NCBI GenBank assembly: GCA_030613245.1
Contig: JAUWMI010000004.1
Span: 32,610-96,609, forward strand
Direction: 5' to 3'
Source of the DNA: Candidatus Sumerlaeota bacterium
GTDB taxonomy: Bacteria > Sumerlaeota > Sumerlaeia > MWCT01 > JAUWMI01
Length of the DNA: 64,000 nucleotides
Of the stretch, positions 4,633 to 10,637 are shown piece after piece; positions within the stretch are counted from its first letter, which is position 1, and each line of letters opens with the position of its first letter. The position numbers and the translations under genes are program-made. The notes beneath the pieces were generated by a model. That model searched no databases and was not told where the DNA came from. It was given only the letters and a program-made list of their open reading frames with translations.

Positions 4633-5780
4633 TGCGCGTGATTTTTATTTCTCACTCAAGCGAATGTTCTGGTGCGCCTCTGGTTTTGCTTTCCATTGTG
4701 CAGCACCTGAATCCCGATAGCTTCAAACCATTGGTCGTGTTCCCGGATTATGGTGGAGCAGAAGAAATGGCTCGCTTGCACGGGGCGACCACACGGGTAA
4801 TCCGCAATCCCGCTATTGGAATCAGCGAAACGGATGGTCTCTGGCCCAGGCTCAGGCTACTTCTCAGGCGTCTGGCTTATGTCTGGCAGCTGGTCGGCCT
4901 GCTCCGACGCGAGCGCGCCGTGATTGCATACGTGAATTCTGCAGTAAGCATTTTCCCTGGCATCGCTGCAGTGATAGCTGGCAAACGCGTCTGTTGGCAC
5001 GTCCACGAAGACATCATACCAGTATGGACCAACCGAGTGAAAATATGGCTTATCAAGCGTATAGCGCGCGTCATCATCTTTGCAGGCTCATCCAGTCAGA
5101 AACCCTTCCTGCCTCGACCCAAACGAGCACTGTGGTTCGTAGTGCCGAATGGCATTGACGTTGACAGATTTGCCAGCGGTCGCGCATCTGCCCAGCTCTA
5201 TAAGGAGCTTAATCTTACACCCGAAGATTTGGTTGTGACAACAACGGCAATGTTGGCTTGGATAAAGGGCATTGACATACTGCTCGAAGCAGCAGCTGAG
5301 GTGGCTGCCCATTTTCAACGAGTGAAGTTCTTAATTGCTGGTGAATCATCACACACGCATAAGCCATACCTCGATGCGCTACAACACCTGATGCAGCGCC
5401 ACGGGTTGGCCCGCAACGTGTTCTTAATCGGCCGACGCCAAGATATTTCAGACATCCTGGCCCTCTCAACGCTCTTCGTTCTTCCTTCGCGACGAGAGGT
5501 TTGTCCGGTTTCGCTCATTGAAGCAATGGCGGCGGGAAAACCCATTATCGCAACAGACGTCGGAAGCGTGAGTGACATCCTCGACAACGGCCGCTGCGGC
5601 GTGATCGTGCCACCCGAAAACCCCCGTGCACTCGCAAAGGCCATAACGCAGCTCCTTGAGAGTGCTGATGCACGCGAACGCCTGGCACAAGAGGCTCGCG
5701 CAAAAGCCCTCCGTGAATATCGCCTCGATGGCTTTATCCAGCAGATAGCGCACGCAATTACACGCACCTTAGGAAATTAG
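4632..5780 (+). CDS. Glycosyltransferase family 4 (GT-B, group 1)
   Basis: The C-terminal EX7E-like region (PSRREVCPVSLIEAMAAGKPIIATDVGS) is typical of GT4. Confidence 0.8.
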   Translation: MRVIFISHSSECSGAPLVLLSIVQHLNPDSFKPLVVFPDYGGAEEMARLHGATTRVIRNPAIGISETDGLWPRLRLLLRRLAYVWQLVGLLRRERAVIAYVNSAVSIFPGIAAVIAGKRVCWHVHEDIIPVWTNRVKIWLIKRIARVIIFAGSSSQKPFLPRPKRALWFVVPNGIDVDRFASGRASAQLYKELNLTPEDLVVTTTAMLAWIKGIDILLEAAAEVAAHFQRVKFLIAGESSHTHKPYLDALQHLMQRHGLARNVFLIGRRQDISDILALSTLFVLPSRREVCPVSLIEAMAAGKPIIATDVGSVSDILDNGRCGVIVPPENPRALAKAITQLLESADARERLAQEARAKALREYRLDGFIQQIAHAITRTLGN

Positions 5781-5879
5781 CGCCACTATTGAGACATCAA
5801 CCATGTATTGCTCGCGCTGTAGTCGCAAAATGAAGGAACAAAAACGCAGCTACCATAAAAAACGCAAGTGGATTTGCCC

Positions 5880-5995
5880 ACGTTGTGGAAAAGTTCGCAT
5901 GCAAGATATTCGGTCGAAGACGGATAAGGTGTGGAAGTGAAATGAGCAGACATATTGTGCAATGATCGAAGCTGCTCATTGTAAAGATTCGTAGG
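5880..5995 (-). pseudogene. 5'-truncated remnant of a paralog of the TMTC-like TPR membrane protein encoded at 8331..10637
   Basis: A 19-nt exact match (gatcgaagctgctcattgt) links 5965-5983 to 10496-10514, with about 35 nt of flanking similarity. The remnant translates to ...YNEQLRSLHNMSAHFTSTPYP, compared with ...HNEQLRSWRNLPALFTSSFPP in the intact gene. It ends abruptly at the 5994 repeat. Confidence 0.35.
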
Positions 5996-6061
5996 GGCGA
6001 CCCGCCGGGTCGCTCATGCCTGTCTTTGATCTTAGAGGTACTACTCGATCTCTGATGAGGG
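5994..6061. repeat. Roughly 70 bp direct repeat, copy A (GGGGCGACCCGCCGGGTCGC hairpin ... CTCTGATGAGGG); copy B is at 8282..8351
   Basis: About 90% identity to 8282-8351 by eye. It contains the perfect inverted repeat gcgaccc(g)cc(g)ggtcgc. Confidence 0.8.
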
Positions 6062-6314
6062 TAGAATGCGGAGGTAGAATGCGGGGACATGTTATAGATT
6101 AATCTTGACGTTAGGTTGCGGACGAGAGTAGAAGTGCATTAATTATGGCTCCTATTGTGAGAACAGTTATTCAGGGATATGCATATATTGCGTCATAATG
6201 AATAACGAGAATTTCAAAAATCAAGACCTGACCTCAAAACCTGGTCTGTATGATAGCAAATTAGTAAAAGAAATTGTTTTTATAATTTTTTGCTTTAAAA
6301 GAGGCGATGTTAAA

Positions 6315-7709
6315 ATGATGTTTAAAAAAATTCTGATGGTTCTTTCTCTGCTTTTCTTACACGTGTTCATCATGGACAGCATAGGACAGACCAACTACTG
6401 GCAGGAGAATGGGTTAAGAATTTGTCAGAAAGATACATTCGAGGGTACTCCGAAGATATGTCCCGCACCTCAAAATGGCGCTATTGTCATCTGGAGAGAT
6501 CTACTTGAGGGTGGTTTGCCCAACGATGTCTGTGGGCAGCGAATCACAGGAATAGGACAGACTCTCTGGGCAACAAATGGTGCTACTTTATTACACTTCA
6601 TTCTAGATAGTTACATGTTGCTGCGTACCTTCACCAGTGAGGGTAATACAAGTTATTATTATGGCTACGAAGAAACCCCCGATTTGTACGTTCAAAAGAT
6701 GGACGTGAATGGCAGTACACAATGGGGTGTATATGGTACAAACACATCTCTTCCGGTAAACGCTGGATATTATCCGACAACCAGAACCGATATGATCTGC
6801 GATGGCTCAGGTGGAGTGATTATGGTATCCCACCCAGTACAGATAATGCCCACCAGTGGGGGCTATCTCTACTGTCAACGCGTCGATAGCTCTGGTTCCA
6901 ACGTTTGGGGAGCAGGAGGCATACAATTACATGGAACAGATGTGGATGAATTTGGGCTTTGCAGCGATGGCGCTGGTGGCGCAATCTTTGCCTGGGTAGA
7001 TAGGAGGGATGCCGGTGATTATAAGGTTTACGCCCAACGTCTAAATGCCAGCGGGACAAAACTCTGGGGTTCAGACGTCCCTGTCTGCAACGAGTCAGGT
7101 TACCAGATCTTTCCACTGGTCATTGCCACTGCTGATGGTGGTGCAATCATTGCCTGGCGAGACACTCGTGCAACTCCACACACACTATACGCGCAACGCC
7201 TGAACAGCAATGGAGCCCCTCAGTGGACCGCTAATGGTATCCCGGTTGCCGGGGGTGATTTTTCACCCCCCAAAGTTTTCCTTAGTGATGGTCAATCAGG
7301 GGTTTTAGTTGTATTTAAAGAAGGATCTTCCCTTTACGTAACTCGTATTTATGCTAACGCAACAATGTGGGCATCAAAGCTTCTCATTGCCAGTGATCTC
7401 AATCTTACTGAATATGTCGCTGTGGAAAGTTCCGGAGGAGACATCATTGTAGCCTGGTTTTCTGGTTCCAACGACATTATATATTGTCGGAGAATCAGTT
7501 CGACAGGCACAAAACTCTGGGATTCTGATAAAACCATCTGCGCTATCGAGCAGGAAAAAGATGATATCGTAATTTGCTCTGACGGCAACGGTGGAGCTAT
7601 TATTAGCTGGGAACAAGATTTCGATATATATGCACAACGAGTCACAGCCGATGGAACACTCGGGCACAATGCCAGCCTCCCGGTGAATAACTGGAAGCTT
7701 TATTACTAG
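6315..7709 (+). CDS. Secreted repeat protein, roughly 7 x 50-aa repeats (beta-propeller-like); function unknown
   Basis: AAGAGG sits 11 nt upstream of ATGATG. The N-terminus MMFKKILMVLSLLFLHVF is signal-like. Recurrent blocks GGAI(I/F)AW...YAQRLN(A/S)(S/N)G(T/A)(K/P)(L/Q)W recur about every 50-55 aa. The local sequence is AT-richer than the flanks. Confidence 0.6.
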   Translation: MMFKKILMVLSLLFLHVFIMDSIGQTNYWQENGLRICQKDTFEGTPKICPAPQNGAIVIWRDLLEGGLPNDVCGQRITGIGQTLWATNGATLLHFILDSYMLLRTFTSEGNTSYYYGYEETPDLYVQKMDVNGSTQWGVYGTNTSLPVNAGYYPTTRTDMICDGSGGVIMVSHPVQIMPTSGGYLYCQRVDSSGSNVWGAGGIQLHGTDVDEFGLCSDGAGGAIFAWVDRRDAGDYKVYAQRLNASGTKLWGSDVPVCNESGYQIFPLVIATADGGAIIAWRDTRATPHTLYAQRLNSNGAPQWTANGIPVAGGDFSPPKVFLSDGQSGVLVVFKEGSSLYVTRIYANATMWASKLLIASDLNLTEYVAVESSGGDIIVAWFSGSNDIIYCRRISSTGTKLWDSDKTICAIEQEKDDIVICSDGNGGAIISWEQDFDIYAQRVTADGTLGHNASLPVNNWKLYY

Positions 7710-7721
7710 GGACAGAATACG

Positions 7722-8028
7722 CAATACGGGGAGGGGCTGGAGGAAGCACAACAGAAAGAAATCACGAAGAACACATACACGGGGCGACCGAGCGGCACGG
7801 CCGATTTCATAAAAAAATTAGAAACACTTCTCGGCCGTTATCTGAAACATCAGAAGCCAGGACGAAAAAAGGGAAATACATAACCTATCCCACCATTTCC
7901 ACCATTTATCGTCCTACCATTTATCGCGCCAGATTGACGCGACGGACGCGAAGATTGACCGGCTGGTGTATGAGCTTTACCAGCTGACAGACGAGGAAAT
8001 CGCCATCGTGGAAGGAGAAAAACATTAA
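7722..8028 (+). pseudogene. Gene remnants; 7930-8028 encodes the characteristic C-terminal tail of an N6-adenine DNA methyltransferase / type IIG restriction-modification (RM) enzyme (QIDATDAKIDRLVYELYQLTDEEIAIVEGEKH*)
   Basis: The ...IDRLVYELYGLTEEEIAIVEG-type tail is a well-known C-terminal signature of Eco57I/PglX-like methyltransferases. No upstream catalytic region is present. The piece at 7722-7882 (EEAQQKEITKNTYTGRP...) is partly repeated at 8238-8290. Confidence 0.4.
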
Positions 8029-8175
8029 CCACGAAGACACAAAGACACCAAGAAAATCTTAGTGCCTTACTGGTGAAAAAAAAGTAAGAAGGGGAGAAAT
8101 TCTAACCACCAAGACACCAAGACACGAAAATATAAAAACACGAAGAATTTTTTGTGCCCGCCTTTGTGTCTTTGT
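8027..8175. repeat. CA-rich degenerate tandem units with a long imperfect inverted repeat (accaccaagacaccaagacac ... gtgtctttgtgcctttgtggt)
   Basis: Two roughly 70-bp units begin accacgaagacacaaagacaccaag / accaccaagacaccaagacacg. The second forms arms of about 21 bp with 3 mismatches. Confidence 0.5.
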
Positions 8176-8281
8176 GCCTTTGTGGTAAAAAAAATAGGAA
8201 AGGAACAATGAAAGAGCACGACCCCATTCCCCAACGTGCGGAGGAAGCACAGGAGGAAGAAATCAGAAAGAACACTTACAC

Positions 8282-8351
8282 GGGGCGACCCGCGCCGGGT
8301 CGCTCATGTTTGTCTTTGATCTTAGAGGAACTACTCGATCTCTGATGAGGG
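8282..8351. repeat. Roughly 70 bp direct repeat, copy B; overlaps the last codons and stop of the TPR-protein gene
   Basis: See copy A. The preceding 45 nt (8238-8281) also match 7737-7780. Confidence 0.8.
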
Positions 8352-10637
8352 GCTAGGCAATTGAATTTGTGGTGGGGATGATGGCGGTCGAATTTCTTTA
8401 CCTTTTTCGAGTTTCTGGCGGGCATAGACATTCTGCGGATCCAGTGTCAGCACCTGCTTCCACATTTCTCTGGCCTTTTCAATATTTCCCGCCAGCTCCA
8501 GCGCATTACCCATTCCCACATAGGCCATTGCATCTTCTGGATTGAACTTCAGCACTTGAGAATAGGCCTTCGCTGCCTTTAAATACTGTCCGCTCCTCAC
8601 CAGCACATCACCGAGAAAGTAGTACATGCGCGGCTCGAATGCGTTGACCTTTCGATAGGCGTAAACAGTCTCAAATGCCTTTTCCAGATGCCCAAGTTGC
8701 ACGTACAGACTGCCGAGGAGAAAGTAAATTTCGAAATCTGGTGGCTGGACTTTCTGAAGTGCGCCCTCCAGAATCGCTATAGCTTTCTCGGGCTGCTGCC
8801 TGCGAAGGTAAATCTCGGCAAGCTTAAGATACGGGCGCGACAGCTCAGGTGCAAGCCGAATGGCGCGTTCTAGATCATTAAGCGCAGCATCCTGATTATT
8901 GAGCTTATCGTGGGCAATCGCACGATTATTAAGAATCCCGGCCAGAATACTTCGAAGATTTTGCTCCTCGGCCCGGCTGTAAAGCTCAATGGCCTTCTCA
9001 TACTTCTCCTCTTCGCAAGCAAAATTACCGAGCTCATAAAGCGCCATTGCATTTGAAGCATTCACCGTGAGCGCATTCTCGAATGCCAAGCGCGCTTTAG
9101 TTGCCTGACCCAGTTCGTTATATAAACTGCCAATCGTTGCATAATGGTTCCCCGTAAGATCGCCCTCCTGTGCCAGCGCCTCTGCCAGAACCTGTTCTAC
9201 TTCGCGGAACTTTTTTTGGCCTATCAATACCTTCGCCAGATGGTGGTGGGCGACGTAATGTGTCGCATCCAGCTGGATTGCCTTGCGAAATTCCCTCTCA
9301 GCAAGACCCACCCGTCCCTCCTCGTAGTGGCTGAATCCCAGAGTATTGTGAGCGACCGAGCTGGTCGGATGCATTCTCACCTCTGCCGTCCAGAAGTCAA
9401 CTCCTTTGCGCCACTCCTGACTGCGTGCATAGGCTTTGACCGCATAGAGAGTAAGTACCACAAGAAGCACAGTGACTGCAGCCAGGCCTATGGGGCTTTC
9501 CATCCCGCGACGCCCTTTTTGGAATGCCATGTGAAAAACTGCCCCACCGATCATGCAAAAGCCAACTGAAGGAAGGAAGAGCAGACGCTCTGCCACAATA
9601 GTCCCAATCGGAATAATATTGACCGCTGGAAGCAAGGTGATACCGAGAAAGGCAATCCCCACAGCCAGAAGCCTCGATTTTCGCCATGCGTAGACTGCAG
9701 CACCAATAACCACGATAATAGCCAGAAGCGAAAGTACGCTCCCCAACGGGTAGAAGTTTGGCTCAAGCGCCGGCTCGTAAACAACCGTAAGCCTATGAGG
9801 GAAGAGCAGAATCCAAAAATTCTTGAACACAATCTGTGGCACAAGACTGAGGCGCTCTATCAGCCCAAGCGTTCCAAGCGCACGGTGCTCACCTTGCGGT
9901 CCAATAGTCCCCAAAATGGACATGCGTATCCCCAGATAGATTAGCGTCATTCCAAAAACAGGCACGTAGAACGGAAGTATCCTATTTTTAATAAACGACT
10001 GCACCGTTTCCTTTGCACGCGGATAGGCAAAATCCAGCAGAACGAGAAGCAGTGGAAGCACGAGCGCGTTTTCGTACGACCCCACGGCAAGAAGATACGC
10101 TGCCAGCATACCTCCGATCAGCAGGCCGCGCTTCTGCTCGCGCTCTATTGCCCACCGATACAGAATCAGCGCACAAAGCAGAAACAATGCCGACAGTATT
10201 CCTGCACGTCCTACAGCCCAGTTGACGTTCTCGGCATGCACCGGATGAGCTGCAAAAAGAAGCGCAGCTACAAAACTCAACGTCTTCTCCCGCGTCAATT
10301 CCAAACAAAGAAGATAAACCAGACAACAGCAGATCAGGTACAGGACAAGGTTGGTCGTGTGATAAACCCCGGGCTGAATATCCGCGACCTGATACTCCAG
10401 CAGGAATGAGAGCGAAAGGATTGGACGATATAATCCCTGCTCCCGTGCGCCCGGTGGAAAGGAAGATGTAAAAAGAGCGGGCAGATTGCGCCACGATCGA
10501 AGCTGCTCATTGTGGACAATATAAGCATAGTCATCGTAAACAAATTCATTCTTGACGCTTCCGCCATAAATAAGCAGTGCCAGCACTACAATTATGCCAA
10601 GTCGAGCATACGTAGTCTTGTCAAATCGCCTCTTCAC
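8331..10637 (-). CDS. TMTC-like membrane glycosyltransferase (GT-C fold, DUF1736-type N-terminus FVYDDYAYIVHNEQL) fused to a C-terminal TPR-repeat domain
   Basis: 768 aa. The N-terminal roughly 430 aa are polytopic membrane, with the F(V)YDD motif typical of TMTC/PMT-like O-mannosyltransferase homologs. The C-terminal roughly 330 aa carry at least 8 TPR-like 34-aa repeats (AxxxY/LG...). Confidence 0.65.
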   Translation of the reverse strand: MKRRFDKTTYARLGIIVVLALLIYGGSVKNEFVYDDYAYIVHNEQLRSWRNLPALFTSSFPPGAREQGLYRPILSLSFLLEYQVADIQPGVYHTTNLVLYLICCCLVYLLCLELTREKTLSFVAALLFAAHPVHAENVNWAVGRAGILSALFLLCALILYRWAIEREQKRGLLIGGMLAAYLLAVGSYENALVLPLLLVLLDFAYPRAKETVQSFIKNRILPFYVPVFGMTLIYLGIRMSILGTIGPQGEHRALGTLGLIERLSLVPQIVFKNFWILLFPHRLTVVYEPALEPNFYPLGSVLSLLAIIVVIGAAVYAWRKSRLLAVGIAFLGITLLPAVNIIPIGTIVAERLLFLPSVGFCMIGGAVFHMAFQKGRRGMESPIGLAAVTVLLVVLTLYAVKAYARSQEWRKGVDFWTAEVRMHPTSSVAHNTLGFSHYEEGRVGLAEREFRKAIQLDATHYVAHHHLAKVLIGQKKFREVEQVLAEALAQEGDLTGNHYATIGSLYNELGQATKARLAFENALTVNASNAMALYELGNFACEEEKYEKAIELYSRAEEQNLRSILAGILNNRAIAHDKLNNQDAALNDLERAIRLAPELSRPYLKLAEIYLRRQQPEKAIAILEGALQKVQPPDFEIYFLLGSLYVQLGHLEKAFETVYAYRKVNAFEPRMYYFLGDVLVRSGQYLKAAKAYSQVLKFNPEDAMAYVGMGNALELAGNIEKAREMWKQVLTLDPQNVYARQKLEKGKEIRPPSSPPQIQLPSPSSEIE

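Follow-up and report, generated by a model that had tools for sequence, protein, structure and literature searches.

What are the repeats, hairpins and gene tails that crowd the spacer between two convergent genes of a Candidatus Sumerlaeota bacterium, and how did they come to lie together? We examined this in a 64-kb window (the whole stretch of DNA analysed, from contig JAUWMI010000004.1 of assembly GCA_030613245.1), in which the locus occupies positions 5934-8360, between a small zinc-ribbon gene and the gene for a TMTC-like membrane protein. An earlier note, made from the letters of the DNA, had described two direct repeats of ~70 bp here (A and B), together with the tail of a restriction-modification (RM) enzyme, CA-rich repeats and a secreted-protein gene, and had considered the element family not recognisable. 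All the sequence features it listed were present on re-examination, and the family can in fact be recognised: the locus holds fragments of a Y1_Tnp gene flanked by terminal inverted repeats (TIRs), similar to REP-associated tyrosine transposases (RAYTs) and to TIRYTs, plus an apparent GTAG-type repetitive extragenic palindromic (REP) hairpin.

Judged by its sequence, the spacer appears to be a strain-variable patch of broken mobile DNA, built from known kinds of element and largely ordinary. Its contents read as Y1-element fragments, a type IIG RM stub, a small inverted-repeat element and one intact passenger gene; with the exception of the passenger gene, all of these components are decayed. 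The transposase pieces would derive from at least three decayed copies of a TIR-flanked Y1_Tnp gene, closest to the RAYT or TIRYT ("TIRtron") type, while repeats A and B look like two copies of one module, with a degenerate GTAG-tagged REP hairpin as its core and a 19-nt linker. We therefore read the locus as accumulated Y1/TIRtron and REP-hairpin debris that was recombined differently in each strain, and put the probability of this reading at about 75%. The features and their coordinates are collected in Table 1.

Table 1. Features of the spacer and its flanks (positions in the 64-kb window).
Feature	Position	Strand	Remarks
Zinc-ribbon gene, 45 aa (CxxC...CxxC)	5803..5940	+	conserved left flank, outside the debris
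D3, 49-nt patch like the 5' coding region of the TMTC-like gene	5934..5982		match to 10465-10513
Module A: GTAG tag, hairpin GGGGCGACCC-GCC-GGGTCGC, then linker TCGATCTCTGATGAGGG	5990..6061	+	apparently a degenerate REP
Left TIR of copy 'a': GGTAGAATGCGG twice, then GGGGACATGTTAT	6062..6106	+	inverted match to L015 right end, 78% over 45 nt
Leader and decayed N-terminus of copy 'a'	6107..6198	+	ATG at 6145; MAPIVRTVIQGYAYIAS, then stop
Passenger gene, 464-aa secreted repeat protein	6315..7709	+	intact; N-terminal hydrophobic helix, ~eight 50-aa repeats
LE', second left-end remnant: GGGACAGAATACGCAATACGGGGA	7710..7733	+	3' of the passenger gene
Copy C, transposase C-terminal tail: GEGLEEAQQKEITKNTYTGRPSGTADFIKKLETLLGRYLKHQKPGRKKGNT, then stop	7728..7883	+	tblastn to reference 74%, E=2e-17
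Right TIR: ATAACCTATCCC, then CCACCATTT-type tandem units	7881..7930	+	blastn to L015 right end
Type IIG RM gene stub, last ~33 codons and stop	7918..8028	+	PADLOC REase_MTase_IIG, E=1.8e-7
Two octamer-array inverted-repeat units (AACCACnAAGACACnAAGACAC ... CTTnGTGnCTTnGTGG)	8025..8190		CA-rich
Transposase fragment ..EHDPIPQRAEEAQEEEIRKNTYTGRP, left half of the tail	8211..8290	+	joined to module B
Module B: hairpin and linker	8282..8351	+	its last 21 nt form the end of the TMTC-like gene (six codons and the stop) on the minus strand
TMTC-like membrane protein with TPR repeats, 768 aa	8331..10637	-	right flank; Pfam TPR families

The spacer in related genomes

Three JGI contigs (L005-L007) carry a TMTC-like ortholog that is 73% identical, in the same neighbourhood: a Wzy-like gene, a GT4 glycosyltransferase, the zinc-ribbon open reading frame (ORF), the TMTC-like gene, a DapL-type aminotransferase, TruA and MutS. 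In these contigs only ~85 nt lie between the stop codons of the zinc-ribbon and TMTC-like genes, and there is no repeat, hairpin or passenger gene. Compared with this arrangement, 5934-8360 reads as extra DNA, ~2.4 kb in the spacer between two conserved convergent genes, and most simply it would be an insertion in an ancestor of the close relatives.

Those close relatives have filled spacers. In GCA_964454265.1 (contigs L013 and L008), modules A and B are present with different transposase fragments between them, and the same passenger gene has its ortholog at the same place in L013. In L009, the module beside the TMTC-like gene has a third kind of left flank. Contigs L010-L012 have two short-form modules (L010 11138-14543) that bracket a gene for an 822-aa AAA_16/AAA_22 ATPase; there is no TMTC-like gene, and the module on the right lies directly against the stop codon of DapL. 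L010 comes from a close relative, with its GT4 and DapL in the same 90% clusters, and the absence of the TMTC-like gene from it indicates that this gene is dispensable in the group. Because the relatives differ both from the window and from each other, the spacer can be regarded as a strain-variable site. The earlier note had asked for such a comparison, and its idea of a decayed insertion or recombination hotspot agrees with the outcome: the insert is absent from the distant relative (L005-L007), and the close relatives have other deletion derivatives or other cargo.

Fragments of a Y1 transposase element

The transposase pieces in the window are by themselves too short for Pfam, and they were assigned by mapping to a reference from contig L015. 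A protein word-index search with the 57-aa tail alone gave no match, and a composite query was needed. This was put together from the fragments in L013, where MARFARIVIPGYAYHVTHRGNRREDVF.. is fused to ..EEAQEEEIRKNTYTGGRPTGATDFIEKLEMLLGRCLKRQKPGRK after module A, and where the passenger gene is followed by a second remnant (..NRREDVFFDDEDR..) and then by ..YVELNPAPVGMVGQPEAYKWSSARAHCK, which runs into the module. The composite retrieved PF01797 proteins, and in one protein (P0078) the YVELNP..YKWSS core and the tail are joined in a single ORF. A near-complete copy with one frameshift is found in L014/L015. Once repaired, it gives a 221-aa reference that matches Pfam Y1_Tnp (PF01797; E=5.5e-16, 59.2 bits, cut-off 23); its best-scoring family is NCBIfam REP_Tyr_transpos (E=2.5e-20, 72.9 bits), and against the NCBIfam IS200 model it reaches 26.7 bits (cut-off 55). 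As the REP_Tyr_transpos score lies under the threshold of that family, we call the protein RAYT-like and not a RAYT equivalog.

What remains in the window is the N-terminal 17 codons and the tail, and the copies in L013 have internal deletions. Positions 6087-6186 correspond to the leader and N-terminus of the L015 element (80%, blastn), and L013 has MARFARIVIPGYAYHVTHRGNRREDVF at that place. Positions 7731-7897 correspond to its tail and right end (78% nucleotide identity, blastn), and tail C is 84% identical to the tail that precedes the passenger gene in L013. The second left-end remnant, LE', matches L013 7970-7997 with 100% identity, and in L013 an N-terminal transposase remnant comes next. 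A further piece, at 8240-8290, represents the tail's left half, with 90% identity to the L015 element and 98% to that same L013 tail; the fragment to which it belongs meets module B at a shared 9-mer, GGGGCGACC, with the tail side reading ..TYTGRP.

This last fragment also explains a third, partial copy of the 70-bp repeat that had been proposed. The repeat is real, in that 7739-7789 and 8240-8290 are 88% identical, but what it resembles is the left extension of B and not A, with which it shares only GGGGCGACC; it is the 3' tail of the transposase gene and not a copy of the 70-bp repeat.

The ends of the element can be recognised as well. The left TIR in the window matches the right end of the L015 element in inverted orientation, and GGGGACAGGTTAT is found at both ends of the L014/L015 element. 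The TIR core there, GGGGACAG(GTTAT), fits GGGGWSAS exactly, and the core at the left end in the window (GGGGACAT) fits it at 7/8 positions. GGGGWSAS has been reported for some TIRs of TIRYT genes, which have TIRs in place of REPs and are known as "TIRtrons" (Di Nocera, De Gregorio and Rocco 2013, PMC3733652).

The near-complete Y1 element (L014 1381-1605 / L015 909-2749) lies directly upstream of an RHS/YD-shell gene, and the tail of a further Y1 copy comes before it in L014. This suggests that there may be arrays of Y1 elements around polymorphic-toxin-type genes.

The hairpin modules and their dispersal

Modules A and B were described earlier as about 90% identical and as containing a hairpin, and both statements hold. 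Their 59-nt core (6003-6061 and 8293-8351) is 95% identical; with the hairpin included, ~85% of 82 aligned columns match, with a 2-nt indel in the loop. The stems GCGACCC/GGGTCGC fold at -8.5 kcal/mol in A and -11.2 kcal/mol in B. Module A starts as CGTAG-GGGCGACCC-GCC-GGGTCGC, that is, with a GTAG tag and an 8-bp stem, and B has CACG and a stem of 9-10 bp; the canonical form elsewhere has a 13-bp stem that includes GTAG...CTAC. In both A and B, the 3' arm of the hairpin is interrupted by ~25 nt that the short form in L010 does not have. A search with the 32-nt core pattern found A and B and nothing else in the window (0/100 shuffles), and no piece of the patch was found again elsewhere in the 64 kb. 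Rfam gave no match in the region at E<=1, its sole match over the whole window being one tRNA, and in the literature no paper was found that contains the patch or octamer-array sequences.

Is the repeat dispersed more widely, as the earlier note had asked? As a whole, the 70-bp unit is not: a pattern of the hairpin plus the right half of the unit gave one chance match in GTDB genomes, without the hairpin, and none in metagenomes. Its 23-nt hairpin core, however, is widely dispersed. Scanned against the metagenome collection, the 23-mer GTAGGGGCGACCCGCCGGGNCGC had at least 126 exact matches in at least 120 contigs (loci L016-L135; examples are L037 4965, L105 10100, L124 and L132), with entirely unrelated flanks among the matches listed. 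Of the 126 listed matches, 89 close as GTAGGGGCGACCC-GCC-GGGTCGCCCCTAC, a 13-bp GTAG...CTAC palindrome (-16.9 kcal/mol), and the listed contigs that carry the hairpin span 38-72% GC.

The hairpin is also found with RAYT-type genes. Y1 remnants adjoin it in the window, and a RAYT-like gene is present at 18/120 listed metagenome loci. At nine listed loci the hairpin was read in frame inside the RAYT-like gene (..MPNHxHGII..VGATRRVAPT..GSxGAIxGQFKS..), as VGATRRVAPT just after the HUH motif. Two of these hairpin-containing proteins scored 63 and 66 bits against NCBIfam REP_Tyr_transpos. In its dispersal and RAYT association, the core appears to bear the signature of a GTAG-type REP. The number of copies is another matter: two in the 64-kb window and none outside the locus in ~100 kb of relatives' DNA. 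Since the hairpin is not abundant here, we do not classify it as a REP family of the classical kind in this genome. An exact GTAG hairpin in more than 100 unrelated environmental contigs, in frame in RAYT-like genes, may merit a dedicated survey of its own.

Canonical hairpins in the metagenomes often have short tandem oligonucleotide arrays on either side (GGGTTTC/GAAACTC, GTGCGAG, TTCGGAGT), as seen in L016, L017, L033, L058, L085-L087 and L100. Such composite repeats are similar in style to the TIRs and CA-rich arrays of the window. Other GTAG...CTAC hairpins, with different stems, occur in intergenic spacers of the relatives (L010 2980-3027, L010 19414, L009 92) at about one per 10-20 kb, and none were found at the corresponding places in the window.

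Origin of the patch

Module A ends on its right precisely where the left TIR begins; in L010, too, a left end follows directly on module and linker, there with a TIR of another subfamily. To the left, both A and the B of the relative border on a transposase gene cut short at ..AHCK. On the far left, the 49-nt patch D3 joins a transposase-gene remnant, CATTGTAAAG, at GCTCATTGT, with GCNCATTGT as the microhomology at the junction; CATTGTAAAG is common to the AYKWSSARAHCK end of the Y1 remnant in L013/L008. Because junctions fall at such short microhomologies (GGGGCGACC, GCNCATTGT), they point to recombination among element copies, and not to attachment (att) sites or target duplications.

It is established for TnpAREP of E. 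coli that single-stranded hairpin DNA is cut and joined at its GTAG-tagged foot. RAYT/TnpAREP enzymes bind single-stranded DNA in its folded form, and their cleavage depends on the GTAG tag (PMC8266576; PMC3733652). The element behind the debris would have been a ~220-aa Y1 (HUH) gene with ~45-nt TIRs, in this lineage preceded by a GTAG-tagged REP hairpin and a 19-nt linker. Elements of this family presumably arrived repeatedly in the convergent intergenic spacer, where illegitimate and homologous recombination among their shared segments would then have deleted and reshuffled the copies into derivatives particular to each strain. The arrangement would be accounted for if the ancestor had a longer array of several copies, from which each lineage lost different parts by deletion at repeats or microhomologies. 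As no transposase is intact, the patch is a fossil and inert now; the passenger gene is an exception, and hairpin B may be another if it serves the gene end as a terminator or RNA-stabilising stem.

Several points weigh against this history. No intact transposase was found in the window or in any relative fetched, and activity has never been observed. The best copy (L015) is frameshifted and has RVH in place of HUH, and the score of its repaired protein, 72.9 bits, is below the NCBIfam equivalog cut-off of 80. Module B lacks the GTAG tag, and the hairpin is not high-copy: the 64 kb contain two degenerate copies, and the flanking DNA of the relatives contains none. L013 and L008 were joined through a contig-end overlap of 55 nt. 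A and B are both older than the split from GCA_964454265.1. Finally, GGGGWSAS is not enriched beside the hairpin in the 126 listed metagenome copies (2 found vs 2.9 expected), which leaves the idea of the hairpin as a general landing pad for GGGGWSAS-type ends without general support, and we rejected it.

Perhaps the modules were instead kept for use by the host, as bidirectional terminators or mRNA-stabilising stems at convergent gene ends. This would be compatible with an origin as mobile debris, and we hold it to be possible, if rather doubtful. Module B is terminator-like by score on the plus strand, and REPs lie mostly downstream of convergent genes, with many thought to be RNA elements (PMC3733652). 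At the A position in L013, the stem has been rebuilt as GCATGGGC...GTCCATGC (-13 kcal/mol), with changes on both sides. A and B are also slightly more alike within the one genome (95%) than A is to its ortholog (~91%), which hints at gene conversion. Yet the copy at the B position in L008 has lost its stem (-6.1 kcal/mol, z = -0.9), and the distant relative manages without any hairpin.

A bolder extension of the debris reading is that the 29-nt hairpin GTAGGGGCGACCCGCCGGGTCGCCCCTAC is a REP family spreading horizontally between widely different bacterial lineages, often with an in-frame copy in its RAYT-like partner, and that loci with the hairpin, TIR-Y1 and octamer repeats act as a cassette-exchange hotspot at which strains swap passenger genes. 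REP families of the classical kind are considered specific to a lineage and inherited vertically. We consider this extension unlikely; if it were true, the swapped cargo would be the putative beta-propeller protein here, the AAA ATPase in L010 and the RHS gene beside L015.

The earlier note saw a truncated paralog fragment beside A, which raises the question of whether A and the 49-nt patch are the residue of a TMTC paralog, a second copy of the gene that had the hairpin downstream of it. The similarity is certainly real: 5934-5982 and 10465-10513 are identical at 40/49 positions, in the same orientation, against 31/49 for the best of 300 shuffles anywhere in the window, and the patch is conserved in L013. 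The minus strand of A also still reads ...LPSSEIE and then a stop. It remains, however, a mere 49-nt patch with no further paralog sequence around it. The similarity to the TMTC-like gene ends there, the conserved small zinc-ribbon gene adjoins it on the left on the opposite strand, and on its other side the patch meets transposase-derived sequence at GCNCATTGT. The order on the minus strand (gene end, hairpin, codons 42-58) is unlike that of a gene remnant, and there is no other TMTC paralog in the window. A local duplication therefore seems improbable.

More improbable still is that A and B are attL and attR of an integrative island that inserted site-specifically in the 3' end of the TMTC-like gene, duplicating ~70 bp, and later lost its integrase. 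The direct repeats do bracket DNA that is absent from a relative, B rebuilds the last codons of the TMTC-like gene, as att sites at gene ends do, and L010 too has two modules that bracket variable DNA. But no integrase or remnant of one was found in any strain fetched (no ORF or Pfam match for one in 5781-8330 or in the relatives' variants). On its right, A runs exactly up to the left TIR of an element, an adjacency seen again in L010 with another TIR subfamily; the module comes after a truncated transposase gene in A and in the relative's B; the left edge of B is a microhomology junction within the transposase tail; and the hairpin core is a dispersed REP-type sequence. The att-site and paralog-remnant readings are thus less likely than debris of Y1 elements and REP hairpins.

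We also considered that the 70-bp unit might be a diverged piece of transposase coding sequence (GDPLLSLDHPF.. compared with GRPAGSLMPVF..), but the native form of that region is already inside the left extension of B. An integron reading of the hairpins and CA-rich arms, as cassettes with attC sites, was rejected on inspection, which showed no R''/R' cores (RYYYAAC ... GTTRRRY).

With the locus read as debris, its repeats, short spurious ORFs and RM-like peptide would be pseudogene material for the purposes of annotation, which removes the puzzle they posed, and only the passenger gene and the small zinc-ribbon gene would merit gene calls. The locus may also serve to illustrate how Y1-transposase elements and REP-type hairpins decay where they lie, and how deletions mediated by microhomology and repeats cause a single spacer to diverge among uncultivated strains that are closely related. 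In one of these, the process would have extended to the loss of the adjoining TMTC-like gene.

Comparison with known elements

Among known systems, TIRtrons and their TIRYT genes (PMC3733652) share with our locus a RAYT-like Y1/HUH gene with long inverted repeats and not REPs, a TIR core (GGGGACAG) that fits GGGGWSAS, and a low copy number. Here, in contrast, no copy is intact, there are tandem 12-mers within the TIRs, the protein has a C-terminal extension of ~70 aa (..TYTGRP..FIEKLE.LLGR.L...K.GRK), a GTAG hairpin module lies just upstream of the left end, and a passenger gene sits between the copies.

REPtrons (Nunvar 2010, PMC2817692; Bertels and Rainey 2011, PMC3116915; Messing 2012, PMC3479197; Corneloup 2021, PMC8266576) likewise have GTAG and a G+C-rich palindrome, of which modules A and B would be degenerate forms, beside a Y1 gene of the RAYT branch, at a site downstream of convergent genes. 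They differ in having hundreds of palindromes per genome, compared with two degenerate copies in 64 kb here, and our copies form direct and not inverted pairs. Moreover, the hairpin is identical across listed contigs of 38-72% GC, unlike the lineage-specific families of classical REPs. Elements of the IS200/IS605 group have the same HUH/Y1 domain (Pfam Y1_Tnp) and hairpins near their ends, but they have subterminal hairpins at both ends and no TIRs, whereas here the IS200 score is under its cut-off and there is no tnpB.

The smaller components also have counterparts. The CA-rich unit resembles miniature inverted-repeat transposable elements (MITEs) and REPINs (paired REPs) in its two mirrored arms of ~24-28 nt, its variable spacer and its dispersal over many contigs; it differs in that its arms are three-octamer arrays bounded by AACC...GGTT, it has no known partner transposase, many of its copies sit in phage-like contigs and it shows no target duplication. 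The RM stub has the extreme C-terminus of type IIG enzymes (the Eco57I/TaqI-like C-terminal region) in its last ~33 codons, and unlike these enzymes it is a stub with no methylase or nuclease domains.

Passenger gene, RM stub and octamer arrays

The one intact gene within the patch is, as had been described, a secreted repeat-protein gene, with its hydrophobic helix resembling a signal peptide. The protein has no Pfam match and no sequence match in PDB. A low-confidence structural model (pLDDT 53) resembles 7-bladed propellers, and the protein is probably a beta-propeller. Its relatives fill 17,010 representative clusters and are mostly very large repeat proteins, many of 1,000-5,500 aa. The gene had also been called lower in GC, and this applies to ~300 nt upstream of it (0.34-0.39) but not to the gene body (0.43-0.53), which is at the window mean of 0.475. 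The ~50-aa repeat, DG.GG.I.AW.D.R....IYAQR....G...W, marks a very large family that no Pfam model detects.

The C-terminal tail of an RM enzyme reported at this locus can be assigned to type IIG: it matches the very end of the PADLOC type IIG REase-MTase profile (positions 1031-1062 of 1066), and its tblastn matches fall under N-6 methylase, Eco57I and TaqI-like genes. No methyltransferase or nuclease domain was found; only the C-terminal ~33 residues match, and the right end of the transposase element lies upstream. Having neither domain, the stub has no function. The suggestion of a defence islet is not supported: these 33 codons are its sole basis, and PADLOC found nothing further; PADLOC also had no matches to the other cargo (the L010 ATPase and the RHS protein of L015).

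The CA-rich inverted repeat next to the stub is real too, with arms of 28 nt at 8025-8052 and 8162-8189 that are 86% complementary, and a further direct copy at ~8103-8130. The octamer motif occurs 8 times where 0.42 occurrences are expected. The arm AACCACnAAGACACnAAGACAC had 21 exact matches in 17 IMG/VR loci (L137-L153), and a mirrored arm lies 28-152 nt away in 10/19 distinct arm matches. From these mirrored partners, the octamer array can be described as a dispersed MITE/REPIN-like family whose partner is not known. The family occurs in phage-like contigs, one of which (L151) has four tandem left arms, and no Y1 genes were found near the viral-contig arrays. Two Logan contigs of this strain (SRR12623517) both end in the octamer array, at window positions 8039 and 8067, with a 29-nt overlap. 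This points to a branch of the assembly graph inside the array, from other copies or from strain variation.

Flanking genes

The zinc-ribbon ORF is easily overlooked in annotation. All relatives have kept it, even the one whose site is empty (~77% amino acid identity in L005), and it is present in L010 too; in L013 it has an in-frame stop. Its conservation in the insert-free relative indicates a real flanking gene. The possibility that it is a C-terminal remnant of TnpB, raised by weak zinc-ribbon/TnpB matches, was rejected, as the full ORF is kept in the relative that lacks the element.

On the right flank, homologs of the TMTC-like protein include proteins named O-mannosyl-transferase/TMTC. 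Module B does lie on the stop codon of this gene (8331-8333), as the earlier note had it, and the C-terminal PSSEIE is common only to relatives that are at least 87% identical and also have the module. In GCA_964454265.1, the TMTC-like protein (P0064, L008 10001-12412) has 803 aa instead of 768, with a 35-aa internal tandem duplication of a TPR unit.

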